Source of the DNA: Rhina ancylostomus
Taxonomy: Eukaryota
Direction of reading: 5' to 3'
Length of the DNA: 64,000 nt
NCBI GenBank assembly: GCA_030265395.1
Contig: JARFYF010000052.1
Location: 115,108,781 to 115,172,780, forward strand
A program made the translations under genes and the position numbers. Shown piece after piece: positions 1 to 50,412 of this stretch (position 1 is the first letter of the stretch; every line of letters begins with the position of its first letter). The notes under the pieces are model-generated. The model saw only the letters and a program-made list of their open reading frames with translations, made no database searches and was not told where the DNA came from.

Positions 1-179
1 CGATAAGAAGGACTATGTCATAAACATAACGTATTCAAACTTTAAGTTGTGGATATAAGAATGGAGGTCAGAAGCTGAGAGGAAGGCAGGAAGGATTCAG
101 CACAACAAAAGAACTTTGGCAAGGTTGGCGTCAGTGAAATTAGTTTTGTAACTATATTCTTAATGATTTTCATTCAGAG

Positions 180-4084: not shown

Positions 4085-4207
4085 AATCCTTGCCATCTGG
4101 CCACTTGAACACATGAAGGGTTTCTGACTTGAAACATTGCCTCTGTTTCTCTTCCCACAGATGCAGCTTGACCTGCTGAGTATTTCCAGCATTTTCTGTT
4201 TTTGTTT
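4085..4207 (+). mobile_element. Penelope-like pLTR fragment with decayed hammerhead motif
   Basis: atgaagggtttctgacttgaaaca...cacagatgcagcttgacctgctgagtatttccagcattttctgttttt is homologous to 32753-32856. Confidence 0.75.
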
Positions 4208-8880: not shown

Positions 8881-8977
8881 TAGCAAAAAAAAACTGCTAA
8901 AGAAACTCAGCAAGTTAGGCAGCATCTGTGGAGGCAGAGGGATTTGTTCCAGATTCCAGAATCTGTAGTCCCTTGTG
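8881..8977. mobile_element. ~97-bp inverted Penelope pLTR mini-insertion
   Basis: Minus-sense pLTR piece (actgctaaagaaactcagcaagttaggcagcatctgtggagg) fused to a plus-sense pLTR end (ccagattccagaatctgtagtcccttgtg). Possible 11-bp TSD tccttccaatg (8869-8879) / tcctttcattg (8978-8988). Confidence 0.7.
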
Positions 8978-9374
8978 TCCTTTCATTGTGGTCTACAACT
9001 GATTCTTCAGTGGCAGTTAGAATATGCAGGTAGATCCCTCTCCTTCTGGTTAGTACCTGCTGCCTCTAGTCATTTGTTAACATTCCTGTATGAGAGAGTC
9101 TAGTAATCTGTTGAGGTGATATTGTTGTCTTGCTGGCTAACTGATGACAACACAACTGATGAGTTGTGAACCTTACCTCACCCTCATACACTGAGCATTG
9201 TTGTAAGTACAAGACTATCAGAGTTGAGAACCGATTGATAGAGACTGCTTACTTGTGGGAGGTAGGAATGCAGTGAATTGATTTTTCAATAAGGTTAATG
9301 GTGCAACTGGTAGGATAGGACATTGAAAGATGATCGCACTGACCTTGATGACTCATGTGAGATCATTAAATGTC

Positions 9375-17605: not shown

Positions 17606-17895
17606 AGATATCTTTATCAGTCATATGTACATCGAAACACAGTGAAATGTATCTTGGCGTAGAATGTTCTGGGAGCAGCCCACAAGTGTTGTCATGCTTC
17701 TGGCACCAACATAGCATGCCCACAACTTCCTAACCCATATATCTTTGGAATGTGGGAGGAAAATGGAGCACCCAGAGGAAACCCATGCAGACACAGGGAG
17801 AATGTACAAACTTCTTACAGACAGCAGCAGAAATTGAACCCGGGCCGCTAGCGCTGTAATAGTGTTATGCTAATCGCTACACTGATGTGCCTGCC
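17606..17895 (-). mobile_element. V-SINE with Rex1/Babar-like tail
   Basis: Full-length reverse copy of 21629-21926 with tRNA-like head (A/B boxes), V-domain and gatgtacatatgactgataaagat tail. Confidence 0.9.
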
Positions 17896-19329: not shown

Positions 19330-21628
19330 CCCAACATCTTGTGCTGTGCTGGAACTTCAGAATACTTCCCGATTCCCGAACAACTGCAGGTGCAGGAATC
19401 ATTGTCAGCTAGAGGAGCTTAAGTTCTGGGTTTTAGAGCCTAAGGTACATCTGATGTCACTGCTGTCTATTCGCAAGGCTAAGAGTTTTATGGATAGCAC
19501 TTCAGAAGGTGGTCACCCAGCATCTTAAGAGAGTGATTGCTAGGCAGACAAAAATGAACAGGCAAGGGTTTCAAAAGACCTTCCAAGGGCATCTTGCTCT
19601 GTAACTATTATTTGGTTTTGAATATTGATGAGGGAGCCTTTTCCTTGGGTTGTGTAGCCAGAGCACAAGCCATGGTATTAGGGGTAGCTCAACTGCACAG
19701 GGAAGGGGGAGGAAAGTCAAGAGAACATTAGTTACGTGGAATCCTATATTTAGTAGACTGACACACATTTCTGCAATCGCAGCTGTAATTACAGAACTAA
19801 ATGTTGCTTCCCAGGTGCTAGGGTCATGGATGTCACTGAGTAGTTGGAGAACATTCAGGAAAGGGAGGATGAATGATCAAAGGTTGTGGTCCATATTGTT
19901 GCCAACAATCAAGGTACAAAAAAGGAATGATGCCCTGCAGGCAGATTTAAAAAGGTAGGAGGGAGATTAAGAAGCAGGACTTCAAAGTAATTTTCCCCAG
20001 ATTGCTTCTGCAGCCATGAAGTATAGAAATACGAAGGTGGTGTAGGTGACTACGTGGCTGAAGAGATGATACAGGAGAGATGAACACAGGGACTAGCTCT
20101 GAGAACGTGAACCTGTACAAGCCTGACAAGTTGCACTTCAACTGGGTCACGACCAATATCCTCACAGATTAGCTTCCAAGTGCTGTTAGTAAGGTTTAAA
20201 CTACAAGGGGTACAAGGAACTACACTTCCTGGAATCTGGGGGCAAAAACAAACTGCTGGAGGAACTCAACGGGTCAAGCAGTATCTGTGGAGACAAAGAG
20301 ATAGTTGACACTTTGAGTCAAGACCCTGCATCAGGACTGGTGCTGGAGGAAAGGATGGGACTTTCCTCCAGCAGTTTGTTTTGTGCTGAAGGTTTAAACT
20401 AACTTAGCAGGGAAATGGAAAAATGACCAAAAATTCACAGAGAGAAGGGGAAATGGAAATGGAGGATATAATATTAATAAGAGAGTTTAAAAGGCAGAGA
20501 AAACAGAGTTCAGATGGTAGGCAGAAAGGGAAAATAGCTAAGCTTAATGGTAAAAGTAAGGAATATGGTGAATAACACAGATGAAGTTGAAGGATCATAT
20601 TAAACCTGTTACAGAAACATGACTTAAAGAGGACCAGGGCTGGAAGCTTAATATTCCTGATTACAGAGTTTTCAGTTGAGATAGACAAGGGAACAACAAA
20701 GGAGGTTGGTTTGTGGGCAATATTGTAAAGAAACAATTACAGCTGTGAGAAAATATAATACCTCAGAATAATCATCAAATAAGATTATGTTGGTTGAACT
20801 AAAGAACAAGCAATGGGTAATCACAATGCTGTGCGTGTATTACAGATGGAAGACCAAATTTGCAGGCAAATTTCTGACAGGGGAAAGCACTTGAACAGTA
20901 AAAGTGGAAGATTTCAATTACCCTATTAACAGTGTAAAACATATAAAGGGCATACAATTCCTAAACTGCATTCAGGAGAGCTTTTTTTCTAGCCAGTATG
21001 TAGCAAGCTCAACCAGAGGAGGGGAGTAGTTTCGGATTTAGTCTTAGGGTATCAACTTGGGCAGGAACCTACAGGGAGTATCAATGGGACTGATCATAAT
21101 TTAATTATATTTAACATTGTTATGGGAAAGGACAAATATAATGCAGGAGTTCTAAATTGGGGTAAAGCCAGTTTTATGAGACTGAGAAGCTATTTAGCAA
21201 AAGTGAACTGGGAAACAGCTACTTAAAGGTAAATCATTCTCAGAGCAATGGGAGATATTTAAGAAGGATATTCAAGGCATTCAGGAATAAGCCAGTTCCC
21301 ACAAAGAGAAAGAATGGGACTGTTGAACCTAAAGTTTCCTGGATGACAAGGTCAGACATCAAAATTTTAATAGAGAAGGCAGATACAGAATAAGAAAGTG
21401 GATGAGTTAAATTAATAAGGATATTTGGAAAACAAAAAGACAATATGGTAAATCTTCTGTCAAGAAAAATCAAAGATGTTTTGTAAGCACGAAAAGAACA
21501 AAAGAATATTTAAAGAGAGAGTAGGGTCTATTAGGAATGGAAAGGTAACCTCAATATGAAGGCAGAGGATCTGGGTAGGGTTCTTAATGTATAATTTATG
21601 ACTGTCATTACAAAGGAGGGATATGATG
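19330..21628 (+). mobile_element. CR1 LINE 5' part: ORF1 (zinc finger + SGNH esterase) and ORF2 APE endonuclease, decayed
   Basis: MLELQNTSRFPNNCRCRNHCQLEEL (ORF1 zinc-finger-like); tgttgcttcccaggtgctagggtc = CCFPGARV and gtggtccatattgttgccaac = VVHI.AN (esterase); agatttcaattacccta = DFNYP (endonuclease). Confidence 0.9.
20204..20388 (-). mobile_element. 185-bp Penelope-derived mini-element nested in the CR1
   Basis: Perfect 13-bp TSD aaggtttaaacta (20191-20203, 20389-20401); pLTR sequence with a degenerate hammerhead on the minus strand; internal inverted repeat aaacaaactgctggaggaa / ttcctccagcagtttgttt. Confidence 0.9.
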
Positions 21629-21926
21629 TGCAGGCATGGTAGTGTAGCAGTTAGCGTAACACTATTACAGTGCTAGCGACCCAGGTTCAATTTCGACCGC
21701 TGTCCGTAAGGAATTTGTACGTTCTCCCCATGTCTGCGTGGGTTTCCTCCAAGTGCTCCGATTTCCTCCCACATTCCAAAGACGTACGGGTTGGGAAGTT
21801 GTGGGCATGCTACATTGGCGCTGGAAGCATGGTGACACTTGCAGGCTGCCCCCAGAACACTCTACACAAAAGATGCATTTCATTGTGTGTTTCGATGTAC
21901 ATGTGACTAATAAAGATATTTAATCT
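21629..21926 (+). mobile_element. V-SINE with Rex1/Babar-like tail
   Basis: Head ggtagtgtagcagttagc (A box), ggttcaattt (B box); V-domain tttgtacgttctccccatgtctgcgtgggtttcctcc...cccacattccaaagac; tail gtacatgtgactaataaagat. Confidence 0.92.
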
Positions 21927-26108: not shown

Positions 26109-26770
26109 AATCTTGTTTTACAGCAAAAGATACCTAACCATTAGACTTGTTATTTTGTGCAACTCCCTGCTATCCCACCCTCCCTCAATACATCGCTGAG
26201 CTAATTATTTTAGTTTGTGATTATTCTTGCAGGAGCTGGCTGTCTGCCCTCTCATAGAATTTTAAGCTGGCCAGGTGTTTGCCAGCAATCTCAGAAGACA
26301 TGACTCAGGGTCAGTGGTGAAATAGGCAAAGCAGCAGGGAGTTTGGTACAGTTTGGGCATGCTGCCCATAGTTACTCAATGCTGCTTTGAAGTAGCAGAC
26401 TTGATTATGAGCCATAATTTATACAGCAACCTTACAAATAAAAAGGAACAAAAGAACACTTTGGCGCTTTAGAATGCTGTGGTGCAGGACATCAGTTGGC
26501 AATCATTTCATCATATCCCCACTCTACCCAATCCCACCACTCAACCCAGTCTCTCTCTGCAACTGCTATCAGTGAGATAAAACTGATAATCCTGGAAATA
26601 CTCAGTAGGTCAGGCAATGTCAATGACCTTTCATTGGAACTGAGAAAAGTTACAGATGAAATAAGTTTCCAGATGTGAGATAGGGGAAGGCAGGACAGAG
26701 CACAAGGGTAGATCTACAATCGGTGAAGGGCAGGAGAGTATAAATGGCAGAAGGAGGAGATAAAAAGTGA

Positions 26771-32109: not shown

Positions 32110-32650
32110 CAGGATGTAGACATTGGTAACTAGGTCAGTATACTTTATTTATTGTACTGTTGTCCATCCCTCATTGCCCTTGAGAAGATATTGGTAAACC
32201 TGCTTCTTGAACCATTACTGTCCTTCTGGTGAAGATACTCTCTCAGTGCTTTTGGAGAGGGAGCTCCAGAATTTAGCAATGATGATGGAATGGTGACATA
32301 TTTCCGTCTGGATGGTCTGCAGCTTCAAGGGAGAATTGCAGCTGGTGGTCATTCTATGTGTCAGTTGCTCTTGTCTTTCTTGATGTTGGATGTGTGTTAA
32401 GGAGGTGCTTGTAGAGTAGCCTAGGCAAGTTACACCATTTTATTTTTTAAATGGTCCAGACTGCAGCCAGAGTAAACTGACATATGAGGTTCCATTCAAG
32501 CAGGGTGTTTTATTTTGGATGGTGCAGAGTTTCTTTTGGAACTGCATTCAGTCAGCCAAATGGAGAGTATTCCATCATTCTGCTGACTTGTGCTTTGTAT
32601 ATGCTGGGAAAGATTTGGAGACTAGTTACTTGCCATGGGATACCAGCAAG
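32110..32650 (-). mobile_element. L2/CR1-group LINE 3' part (same family as 26771-27862)
   Basis: Reverse translation IFPSIYKAQVSRMMEYSP; reverse tail ttctcaagggcaatgagggatggacaa. Confidence 0.75.
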
Positions 32651-32727
32651 TGACCTACTGATTGACCACTCTGTGGCTATTATTATAGGCATAAAATTCA
32701 TGGTTGAACAGACAGCAGCAATCTTTG

Positions 32728-32858
32728 ACACAAGAGATTGCTGATGCTGCAAATAGTCCTGATGAAGGGTCTCGGCCCGAAACGTCGACTGTTCATTTCC
32801 CTCCATAGATTTTGCTTGACCTGCTGAGTCCCTTCAGCATTTTGTGTGTGTGTTGCGT
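32728..32858 (+). mobile_element. 131-bp Penelope-derived mini-element carrying a hammerhead ribozyme
   Basis: Inverted pLTR tip (acacaagagattgctgatgctg) joined to a sense pLTR segment; 13-bp TSD gcagcaatctttg (32715-32727) / gcagtgatctttg (32859-32871). Confidence 0.9.
32753..32792 (+). ncRNA. Minimal type I hammerhead ribozyme motif (Penelope-associated)
   Basis: atagtc CTGATGA a gggt-ctcg-gccc GAAA cg TC gactgt: 6-bp stem I, core CUGAUGA, 4-bp stem II, GAAA, palindromic ACGU stem III, GUC triplet at 32784-32786. One extra A follows the core. Activity not shown. Confidence 0.75.
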
Positions 32859-32929
32859 GCAGTGATCTTTGCCCCATTTTATATTTCTGAGACTTGAACT
32901 ACTTGTTACAGACACTTCTGGCTACTTGA

Positions 32930-47621: not shown

Positions 47622-47720
47622 ATTTCTGGGAAGGATCATTGACCTGAAATGTTAATTCTGTTTTTCTCTCGAGAGATACTATCTGACCTTCTGAGGTCTT
47701 CCAGCATTTTCTGTTTTTCT
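47622..47720 (+). mobile_element. Penelope pLTR fragment with decayed hammerhead
   Basis: ttctgggaaggatcattgacctgaaatgttaattct...tctgaccttctgaggtcttccagcattttctgtttt. Confidence 0.7.
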
Positions 47721-48491: not shown

Positions 48492-49375
48492 TCACAAGAG
48501 ATTCTGCAGATGCTGGAATCTGGAGCAACACACATAAAATGCTGGAGGAACTCAGCAGGTCAGGCAGCANNNNNNNNNNNNNNNNNNNNNNNNNNNNNNN
48601 NNNNNNNNNNNNNNNNNNNNNNNNNNNNNNNNNNNNNNNNNNNNNNNNNNNNNNNNNNNNNNNNNNNNNNNNNNNNNNNNNNNNNNNNNNNNNNNNNNNN
48701 NNNNNNNNNNNNNNNNNNNNNNNNNNNNNNNNNNNNNNNNNNNNNNNNNNNNNNNNNNNNNNNNNNNNNNNNNNNNNNNNNNNNNNNNNNNNNNNNNNNN
48801 NNNNNNNNNNNNNNNNNNNNNNNNNNNNNNNNNNNNNNNNNNNNNNNNNNNNNNNNNNNNNNNNNNNNNNNNNNNNNNNNNNNNNNNNNNNNNNNNNNNN
48901 NNNNNNNNNNNNNNNNNNNNNNNNNNNNNNNNNNNNNNNNNNNNNNNNNNNNNNNNNNNNNNNNNNNNNNNNNNNNNNNNNNNNNNNNNNNNNNNNNNNN
49001 NNNNNNNNNNNNNNNNNNNNNNNNNNNNNNNNNNNNNNNNNNNNNNNNNNNNNNNNNNNNNNNNNNNNNNNNNNNNNNNNNNNNNNNNNNNNNNNNNNNN
49101 NNNNNNNNNNNNNNNNNNNNNNNNNNNNNNNNNNNNNNNNNNNNNNNNNNNNNNNNNNNNNNNNNNNNNNNNNNNNNNNNNNNNNNNNNNNNNNNNNNNN
49201 NNNNNNNNNNNNNNNNNNNNNNNNNCCCAGAATGGTGGTGAATGAGGAGGTGTAAGGGCAGGTGTAGGACTTAGTGCGGTTGCAGGGATAAGTACTGGGA
49301 AGGTCATCTGCAGGGAGGGACAAGTGGACAAGGGAGTCGCGGAGAGAGCAATCCCTACAGAAAGTGGAGAGAGAA
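48492..49375 (-). mobile_element. Penelope-like element 3' part (mostly N gap)
   Basis: pLTR end cacaagagattctgcagatgctggaatc...gctggaggaactcagcaggtcaggcagca; reverse translation STYPCNRTKSYTCPYTSSFTTI (Cys motif preceding the GIY-YIG domain). Confidence 0.85.
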
Positions 49376-49698
49376 TGTTCGTATGTGTTTTAGCTGGTGT
49401 AGATTGTAAATCAATTCCATAAATTTCTTATTAATTTGATTCAAGATTGTATTAAAGTTGGTACCTCCATGAATACCATTTGTATCTTCTGATGCCTCAT
49501 TGTAAAATATGCATGGTATGAACAGTAATTCTGTATGAAGAACAGTTGGGCAAAGACAAGCGTTTCGACATAGTACAAGGTTAGTTAAGCACTATAAAAA
49601 CCTGGTTTGTATTGGAGTCCTTTGCAGGAGTGCCATTGGAGTTCTACGTTAATTTACTGTGCTTTAGTATTTTTAGTTGATGGTTAATAAATGTTATC

Positions 49699-50412
49699 AT
49701 GATGGTAAATTTACATGAGGAAGTAAAGCATGATTTGCTGGGTTCATTTGAAGATGCTGCCAAATTAAGAAATGCAATAAAGGGTTTGTGTATTGATGAA
49801 GATGGCATCATTGAAGTATTGGCCAAAAGAACTATCACCCAGAGGCAGCAGATCAAACTGGATTTCAAGACTGCCTTCGGTAGGGACTTGATTAGTGATC
49901 TTGAGTCTGAAGTATCTGGGAACATTGAGAAGGTGGTTCTTGGATTAATGATGACTTCTGCCTTGTATGATGCACATGAAATGAAGAATGCAATAAAGGA
50001 TGCTGGCTCGGATGAAGGTTGTTTGATTGAAATTTTGGTTTTGTGGAATAATTGTGAAATCCAGCAGATTGTTGCCACATACAAGAAAGAGCTTGGCAAG
50101 AATCTGGAGGATGATATCTGCGGGGACACTTCTCACATGTTCCAAAGAGTGCTCGTGTCTCTATCAATGGGAGAGAGAGATGAAGAAGGTCATTTAGTTG
50201 AGCAGCAAGGCAAAAAGGATGCATCGACACTGTATGATGCTGGTGAAAAACAATGAGGAATGGATGAAGTTCCATTCTTGAGCATTGTCTGTATCAGGAA
50301 CCCATTGCATTTGAAAAGAGTATTTGAAGAGTGTAAGAAGATTCCTAACAAGGACATTGAGGCCAGCACTGAGGAAGAGATGTCTGGCAGCCTGGAAAGT
50401 TCTTTATTGGCC
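49699..50412 (+). pseudogene. ANXA4: Processed annexin pseudogene, best resembling annexin A4; covers repeats I-III only
   Basis: Intronless 238-codon frame with EDAAKLRNAIKGLCIDED, GRDLISDLESEVSGN, AGSDEGCLIEIL, DTSHMFQRVLVSLS, LYDAGEKQ*GMDEV, SGSLESSLLA. TGA at 50254-50256 replaces the Trp of WGTDE; homology stops after LLA. Confidence 0.9.

Follow-up and report, generated by a model that had tools for sequence, protein, structure and literature searches.

Does a 131-bp insert carrying a seemingly complete hammerhead ribozyme represent a truncated and inverted Penelope insertion, or a non-autonomous, ribozyme-bearing family in its own right? In this work the locus was analyzed within the 64-kb stretch of Rhina DNA that contains it (the window, to which all positions refer) and was compared with related copies across the genome. 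The insert is very probably the 5'-truncated end of an abundant Penelope-like retrotransposon that bears an endonuclease; it is likely dead and would have arisen in one integration where both cut strands primed reverse transcription on the RNA of the element. For comparison between copies the C3 of the hammerhead (window 32759) was numbered 0, which makes A32755 position -4 and places the predicted cut between +27 and +28.

Anatomy of the insert and its hammerhead

The features of the locus are collected in Table 1. The non-coding insert lies where the first-pass annotation had located it, and so does its 13-bp TSD, although the two TSD copies are not perfect repeats. Both of their mismatches (CA versus TG) are decay products of one CpG, and 0.8% of 200,000 random window pairs reach at least 11/13 with 2 nt of slack at both ends. 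The inversion junction had been placed at 32752/32753; the family alignment moves it to 32754/32755, such that the left 27 bp are the family tail in inverted orientation and the forward arm has no tail. A contig of the X2 run spans the right junction without difference and shows 11 differences over 388 bases of its left flank; the insertion is therefore likely to be common to a related organism. No empty site was recovered via the flanking repeat among 19 loci, which counts against reading the insert as a stub.

Table 1. Coordinates of the insert, its hammerhead and its surroundings in the 64-kb window
Feature	Position	Strand	Remarks
Older interspersed repeat, unrelated	32420..32683		left flank, outside the unit; 70-81% to other copies
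Left TSD copy	32715..32727	+	13 bp; 11/13 versus right copy; final G possibly the element's
Insert	32728-32858		131 bp
Family 3' tail, inverted	32728..32754	-	27 bp; aligned to natural tails; layout matches nine other loci
Minimal type I hammerhead, predicted	32753..32792	+	
Stem I	32753-32758 / 32787-32792		
CUGAUGA core	32759-32765		
Extra A	32766		
Stem II	32767-32770 / 32775-32778		
GAAA	32779-32782		
Palindrome ACGU (stem III)	32782-32785		
Predicted cut	after 32786		
pLTR 3' part, 5'-truncated	32755..32856	+	begins at A32755, the modal 5' start of the family; 3' end without tail
Two bases separating element end from TSD	32857..32858	+	
Right TSD copy	32859..32871	+	

Core, stem II, GAAA, ACGU palindrome and cut site were each found where they had been claimed. 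The 6-bp stem I is correctly positioned but partly accidental: 32753-32754 derive from the inverted tail, the family stem is of 5 bp, and position 32753 is an unpaired C in 33 of 59 copies. The extra A, first taken for a departure from the canonical motif, is the family norm (58/59 copies), an extra nucleotide being conserved in Penelope minimal hammerheads according to the accessible text of PMC4209133. Core, extra nucleotide, G10.1-C11.1 and palindromic helix III, which define the minimal type I hammerheads of Penelope-like elements (PLEs), are all present. The metazoan PLE examples described in the same text share with the Rhina motif the CUGANGA/GAAA core, the extra nucleotide between 9 and 10.1, the G10.1-C11.1 pair, the palindromic helix III, a 5-bp helix I and a mostly solitary occurrence; helix II is of 4 bp here, in contrast to 7-8 bp in the Schistosoma examples, and we did not find cartilaginous fish named in the accessible part of that survey (PMC4209133).

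A search of Rfam, at gathering cut-offs and at E<=10, returned nothing. The fold of the 46-nt unit has a z of -2.0, with 6 of 200 shuffles folding equally well. The optimal monomer fold pairs core G5-G8 with CGUC on the cleavage side, a helix III with a 2-nt loop is impossible for a monomer in the energy model, and the cofold of a dimer gives an extended duplex rather than the active form. The monomer is predicted to bury its core, and cleavage would require a second copy or the protein of the element. For Penelope minimal hammerheads, the accessible text of PMC4209133 reports a monomer without cleavage and low cleavage of the dimer. The hammerhead is inherited cargo and is probably silent here.

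Every hammerhead feature is kept in 3 of 59 sampled copies, and the window's copy belongs to the best-kept few percent. Changes in the stems of the 59 copies are one-sided U-A/U-G exchanges (35 versus 19), with no common two-sided change, the rest being CpG decay. All four hammerhead CpGs are retained in the window's copy, which counts against a dead stub. It is exceedingly unlikely, all the same, that selection has kept this hammerhead to cut a host transcript. Such a role would fit its intact features and the presence of its right junction in the somewhat diverged X2 contig. Against it, the genome holds 184 identical cores, so that some of the many thousands of copies should be intact by chance, and the window's copy was singled out because it looked intact; the monomer would have no helix III and a mispaired core in its best fold, with no partner nearby; and no host exon was identified nearby among ORFs of at least 110 aa. 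Elsewhere in the genome, one stub with an intact core (L097, G000:C52:59591773-59593400) lies just 3' of a GC-rich stretch that resembles a promoter, and it may be transcribed.

The parent element and the question of a separate family

Bases 32755-32856 matched a very abundant repeat, with 3,345 candidates, 40 of which were scored. Exact copies of the CpG-rich 28-nt core numbered 184 and those of a 32-nt downstream motif 6,731, with 0 for the reversed control in both cases. Many copies run upstream into a pyrimidine-rich tract and then into coding remnants. With an RT piece from the locus L027 as query, 8,758 candidates were obtained and 20 loci fetched. A PLE-type RT lies upstream of the repeat in L133, L134, L145, L148 and others. 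Several of the 20 carry RT, thumb, linker, tract and hammerhead on the same strand, and in L133 the series of RT, thumb, linker, EN, pyrimidine tract and hammerhead is gap-free on a single strand; the hammerhead belongs to the pLTR and has the same sense as the ORF. Intact copies are preceded by a long pyrimidine tract (e.g., L133 4420-4640) whose CAG end abuts stem I.

The RT of L133 matches 51 long proteins with RVT_1 and/or PF26215, some of them also with GIY-YIG, and its best named match is from the shark Chiloscyllium punctatum (59%). The EN of L139 is 36% identical to the Pfam-positive GIY-YIG region of protein P0010 (E 2e-16). On the decayed pieces themselves Pfam stayed below its cut-offs (RVT_1 fragment E 0.002, GIY-YIG E 0.066), which counts against the assignment. 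A C-x4-C-x2-C linker is present in L133 and L150 and decayed in L139; CX2-5CxxC between RT and EN is described as a Neptune and Nematis motif in the accessible text of PMC8557442. By the definition given there, and as judged from sequence motifs rather than an RT tree, the element is an EN+ PLE of Neptune or Nematis type. Translation of five copies gave GIY-YIG with the C-x4-C-x2-C linker, and all five have stops or frameshifts, a count that refers to 20 loci fetched of 8,758 RT candidates with many assembly gaps.

Parent copies with RT, EN and pLTR exist, and tail, inversion and TSD agree with published PLE insertions, which bears out the earlier suggestion of a truncated, inverted Penelope insertion. 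The insert is a 3' pLTR fragment of an abundant Neptune-type PLE, which is a known kind of sequence, and its truncation, inversion, tail, TSD and extra A are already published Penelope traits. EN+ Neptune-type PLE insertions, as far as the accessible texts of PMC8557442 and PMC3846280 describe them, have in common with the Rhina family the RT with C-terminal GIY-YIG and Cys linker in the parent, the pLTR hammerhead, 5' truncation, an adjacent inverted copy, a 30-40-bp tail at a single end and a TSD. Unlike these, the window insert is near-minimal, with an inverted arm made of the tail alone, and we did not find a fixed start or an excess of G described in those texts (both are treated below).

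The window contains further members of the family. A longer copy at 48493-49430 (-) has an EN linker remnant, an N gap and a tailed pLTR end, and older, more decayed pLTR remnants are found at 20212-20340 (-), 4113-4199 (+), 8891-8979, 26592-26616 and 47683-47714, the two matches at 8891-8979 being on opposite strands. A 241-bp inverted pair (17654-17894 / 21630-21870; 82% complementary, 3.7 kb apart) belongs to a different repeat family. An intron-less 191-aa frame at 49681-50256 (+) has two Annexin repeats (E 3e-39) and resembles an annexin mRNA that was processed and retrocopied.

The layout of the insert is not unique. A gapped pattern combining the inverted tail with the -4 start was searched genome-wide and gave 11 matches, window included; nine of the 10 others have the same layout, six of those nine with clear 9-16-bp TSDs at both ends. 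The predicted recurrence of both ends was thus confirmed, the layout being a stereotyped product found at nine other loci. Such recurrence, together with a TSD that abuts the start in 6 of 33 non-inverted fixed-start copies, is what would be expected of a SINE-like or retrozyme-like family whose units, about 130 bp long, are transcribed in their own right and copied in trans. This explanation is nevertheless improbable. The junction that the members of a non-autonomous ribozyme family had been proposed to share differs in its letters in 11/11 genome-wide matches, the units do not begin at the cut site, and the 25 copies with the fixed start form no cluster separate from the 30 long ones (p 0.62 and 0.45), in a test whose power is low with 55 copies, 96 columns and heavy CpG decay. 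No tandem array was found at the insert locus, where 12.4 kb separate the insert from the nearest family copy, which is on the opposite strand, nor was a same-strand partner with a hammerhead core found near the insert. Elsewhere, same-strand core pairs (L050/L051 and L061) have N between them and so show no tandem. Because every junction differs and no tandem array was found at the locus, we conclude that the layout is re-made at each insertion.

A non-LTR retrozyme was considered and ruled out, there being no tandem array or nearby same-strand partner at the locus, which is the criterion used in the accessible part of bioRxiv 10.64898/2026.07.22.740005. As described there, animal non-LTR retrozymes are likewise non-coding, pLTR-derived and equipped with a type I hammerhead; they are tandem arrays with a hammerhead in each unit, whereas the window insert stands alone as a dispersed copy and has an inverted tail and a TSD.

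The fixed 5' start and the base that precedes it

For the analysis of 5' ends, copies were selected by the downstream motif alone, giving 95 copies in the first part of contig C1, of which 74 were N-free and 61 ended between -60 and +48. Twenty-five of the 61 end at -6..+1, that is in 8 of 109 positions (mode -4, p 3e-13), and a second sample, selected by the core, had 19 of 36 at this fixed start. The 5' ends do not pile up at the predicted cut site (4 versus 4.5 expected). The flanks of fixed-start copies are unrelated in 33 of 44 cases, 10 of the others showing the copy's own inverted arm and 1 an internal deletion; another subfamily as the cause of the fixed start was rejected, the flanks being unrelated. 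Genome-wide, 6,518 copies have the start motif, 4,681 of these with four upstream pyrimidines and 3,966 with eight, meaning that 28% are lost in the first four bases and 15% in the next four. The resulting excess of about 15% of copies is below the share in the local sample and counts against the start; the local share is overestimated, since dropping N-bearing copies preferentially loses long ones. When the X1 and X2 contigs were compared with the pLTR copy L067, the fixed-start place was absent from the best 12 of 645 loose-end rows, and it is estimated to lie below the level of these. No printed account of the fixed start was found in the openly accessible literature searched.

We slightly favor the reading that A32755 is a capped transcript start and that the stubs are run-off ('strong-stop-like') copies of the 5' pLTR. 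The bases around -4 agree with the vertebrate initiator consensus. Among the observations that count against this reading, the ends scatter across -6..+1 instead of marking a single base, and these bases can equally be taken for a 3' splice site or for the border of stem I. The D. virilis Penelope transcript begins inside the pLTR, 46 nt ahead of the intron, according to the accessible text of PMC2377424, which is unlike the start proposed here.

Two further explanations were considered. Splicing to an exon of the element or the host, at an acceptor-like site formed by the pyrimidine tract and the CAG that precede 32757, would produce fixed ends, and intact copies do carry tract and CAG just ahead of stem I; moreover, the D. 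virilis Penelope intron terminates at the 5' end of helix I in the accessible text of PMC4209133. We consider splicing highly doubtful all the same, since no upstream exon is common to the 44 copies, the TSD abuts the start in 6 copies with no distant TSD above the null in 12, and the window's copy retains the AG beside its inverted tail. A shared spliced leader was searched for and not found, nor were distant TSDs beyond the null.

The other explanation, which is possible if rather unlikely, keeps the insert as a PLE stub and makes its 5' end structural, through RT stalling or folding back at stem I or through 5'-3' nuclease trimming down to a protein-bound hammerhead. The modal end (-4, -5) coincides with the first base of stem I, the inverted arms of L034, L112, L041 and L177 stop at stem I's 3' strand or where they meet a short match to it, and protein-assisted folding of the hammerhead is described in the accessible text of PMC11167929. 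A stalling RT, however, would be expected to stop at the 3' strand, which it meets first and where there is no excess (4 versus 4.5), and neither version predicts that G should exceed A before the start.

Such an excess is what the junctions show. Immediately before the -4 start, 467 copies have G and 233 have A, while composition predicts a G share of 0.39 (about 0.64:1); with G twice as frequent as A, the pattern agrees with a copied RNA cap. By eye, 28-29 of 30 G loci and 26 of 30 A loci have true junctions. At a control site 19 nt upstream there were 24 G and 67 A among the matches listed, the A count probably being inflated by short repeat-mediated deletion. L280 combines a perfect 13-bp TSD with one extra G and in L293 the G lies inside the TSD, but these are the 2 of 13 direct G-junction loci with a clear TSD; the other 11 have none clear, and this counts against a cap-derived base, as does the T which the window's copy carries ahead of A32755. 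An extra, cap-derived G marks full-length L1 junctions, and twin priming is known in L1, according to the accessible text of PMC11702581. No earlier account of the G excess was found in the literature searched.

3' ends, inverted arms and the proposed integration

The 3' ends were analyzed in 86 N-free copies out of 91. Two ends are preferred, at +127..133 (38/86) and at +90..101 (26/86), and the distance between them is the tail, of about 33 nt. A TSD was found in 14 of 67 copies, versus 0.7% of 1,500 shuffled pairs. Inverted arms were surveyed in 114 pooled copies, those with N near the junction or with more than 150 nt of upstream match being left out. Among the inverted copies 13 of 26 have an 11-17-bp TSD, compared with 11 of 88 non-inverted copies, a low figure that counts against the stub reading. 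The tail is present on exactly one arm in 21 of the 26 inverted copies, on neither in 5 and on both in 0 (p 0.002). An inverted copy, a one-sided tail and a TSD are traits of PLE insertions in the accessible texts of PMC8557442 and PMC3846280.

Several loci illustrate the range of these products. L027 (G000:C94:61320810-61323906) has about 1.2 kb of inverted RT joined to a truncated pLTR. In L287, L292, L294, L295 and L300 the arms are head to head and both reach the fixed start; in L294 and L300 a C comes next after this arm when it is inverted, which mirrors the extra G. The inverted arms of L034, L112, L298 and L315 run as far as stem I's 3' strand (about +32) and are joined to the forward arm via stem complementarity; a few arms of this kind may reflect cleavage or joining by microhomology.

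One parallel concerns PAc, the Poseidon element of Anolis, for which the accessible text of PMC11167929 describes two internal RT starts, extension of both target strands and uncleaved RNA as template. PAc likewise has two preferred 3' ends, which lie 3' of the hammerhead and are separated by the length of a tail, and ends at the cut site are not seen. It differs in belonging to another clade and in an ORF that begins at stem II, and we did not find genomic 5' ends discussed in that text. Twin-primed inversions of L1 (accessible text of PMC11702581) also keep discrete TSDs, and full-length L1 copies carry an extra G at the 5' junction. Priming in L1 takes place at the poly(A) end and through microhomology, whereas the Rhina family appears to use two fixed internal starts.

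In the mechanism we consider likely for the window insert, the GIY-YIG endonuclease would make a 13-nt staggered cut. One strand would then prime at the tail-less internal start (about 32856) and be extended to the RNA 5' end at A32755, the other would prime at the end of the tail and copy 27 nt, and the two cDNAs would be end-joined head to head. The two arms of the window's copy do not overlap, so that a single RNA would be enough; overlapping arms, as seen in most other inverted copies, would call for two RNAs or displacement. For the family as a whole the corresponding model is about evenly balanced: the transcript would be capped at the first base of stem I, the internal RT starts would lie about 100 and about 135 nt downstream, and the commonest short product would be a strong-stop-like copy of the RNA 5' end, which would integrate either by itself or, through twin priming, together with an inverted tail.

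The single insertion is of little weight, being one among many thousands of decayed Penelope ends, and it is the family statistics that bear on Penelope-like transposition and on the role of the hammerhead. They suggest a transcription start at the edge of the ribozyme, which can be tested, as well as two fixed sites primed from both target strands, and they speak against cleaved RNA as the template. If the model is true, the ribozyme would sit at the extreme 5' end of the mRNA, uncleaved RNA would be shown to be the template in vivo, and a capped start at stem I would account for the minimal hammerheads that occur singly, in their thousands, in animal genomes.
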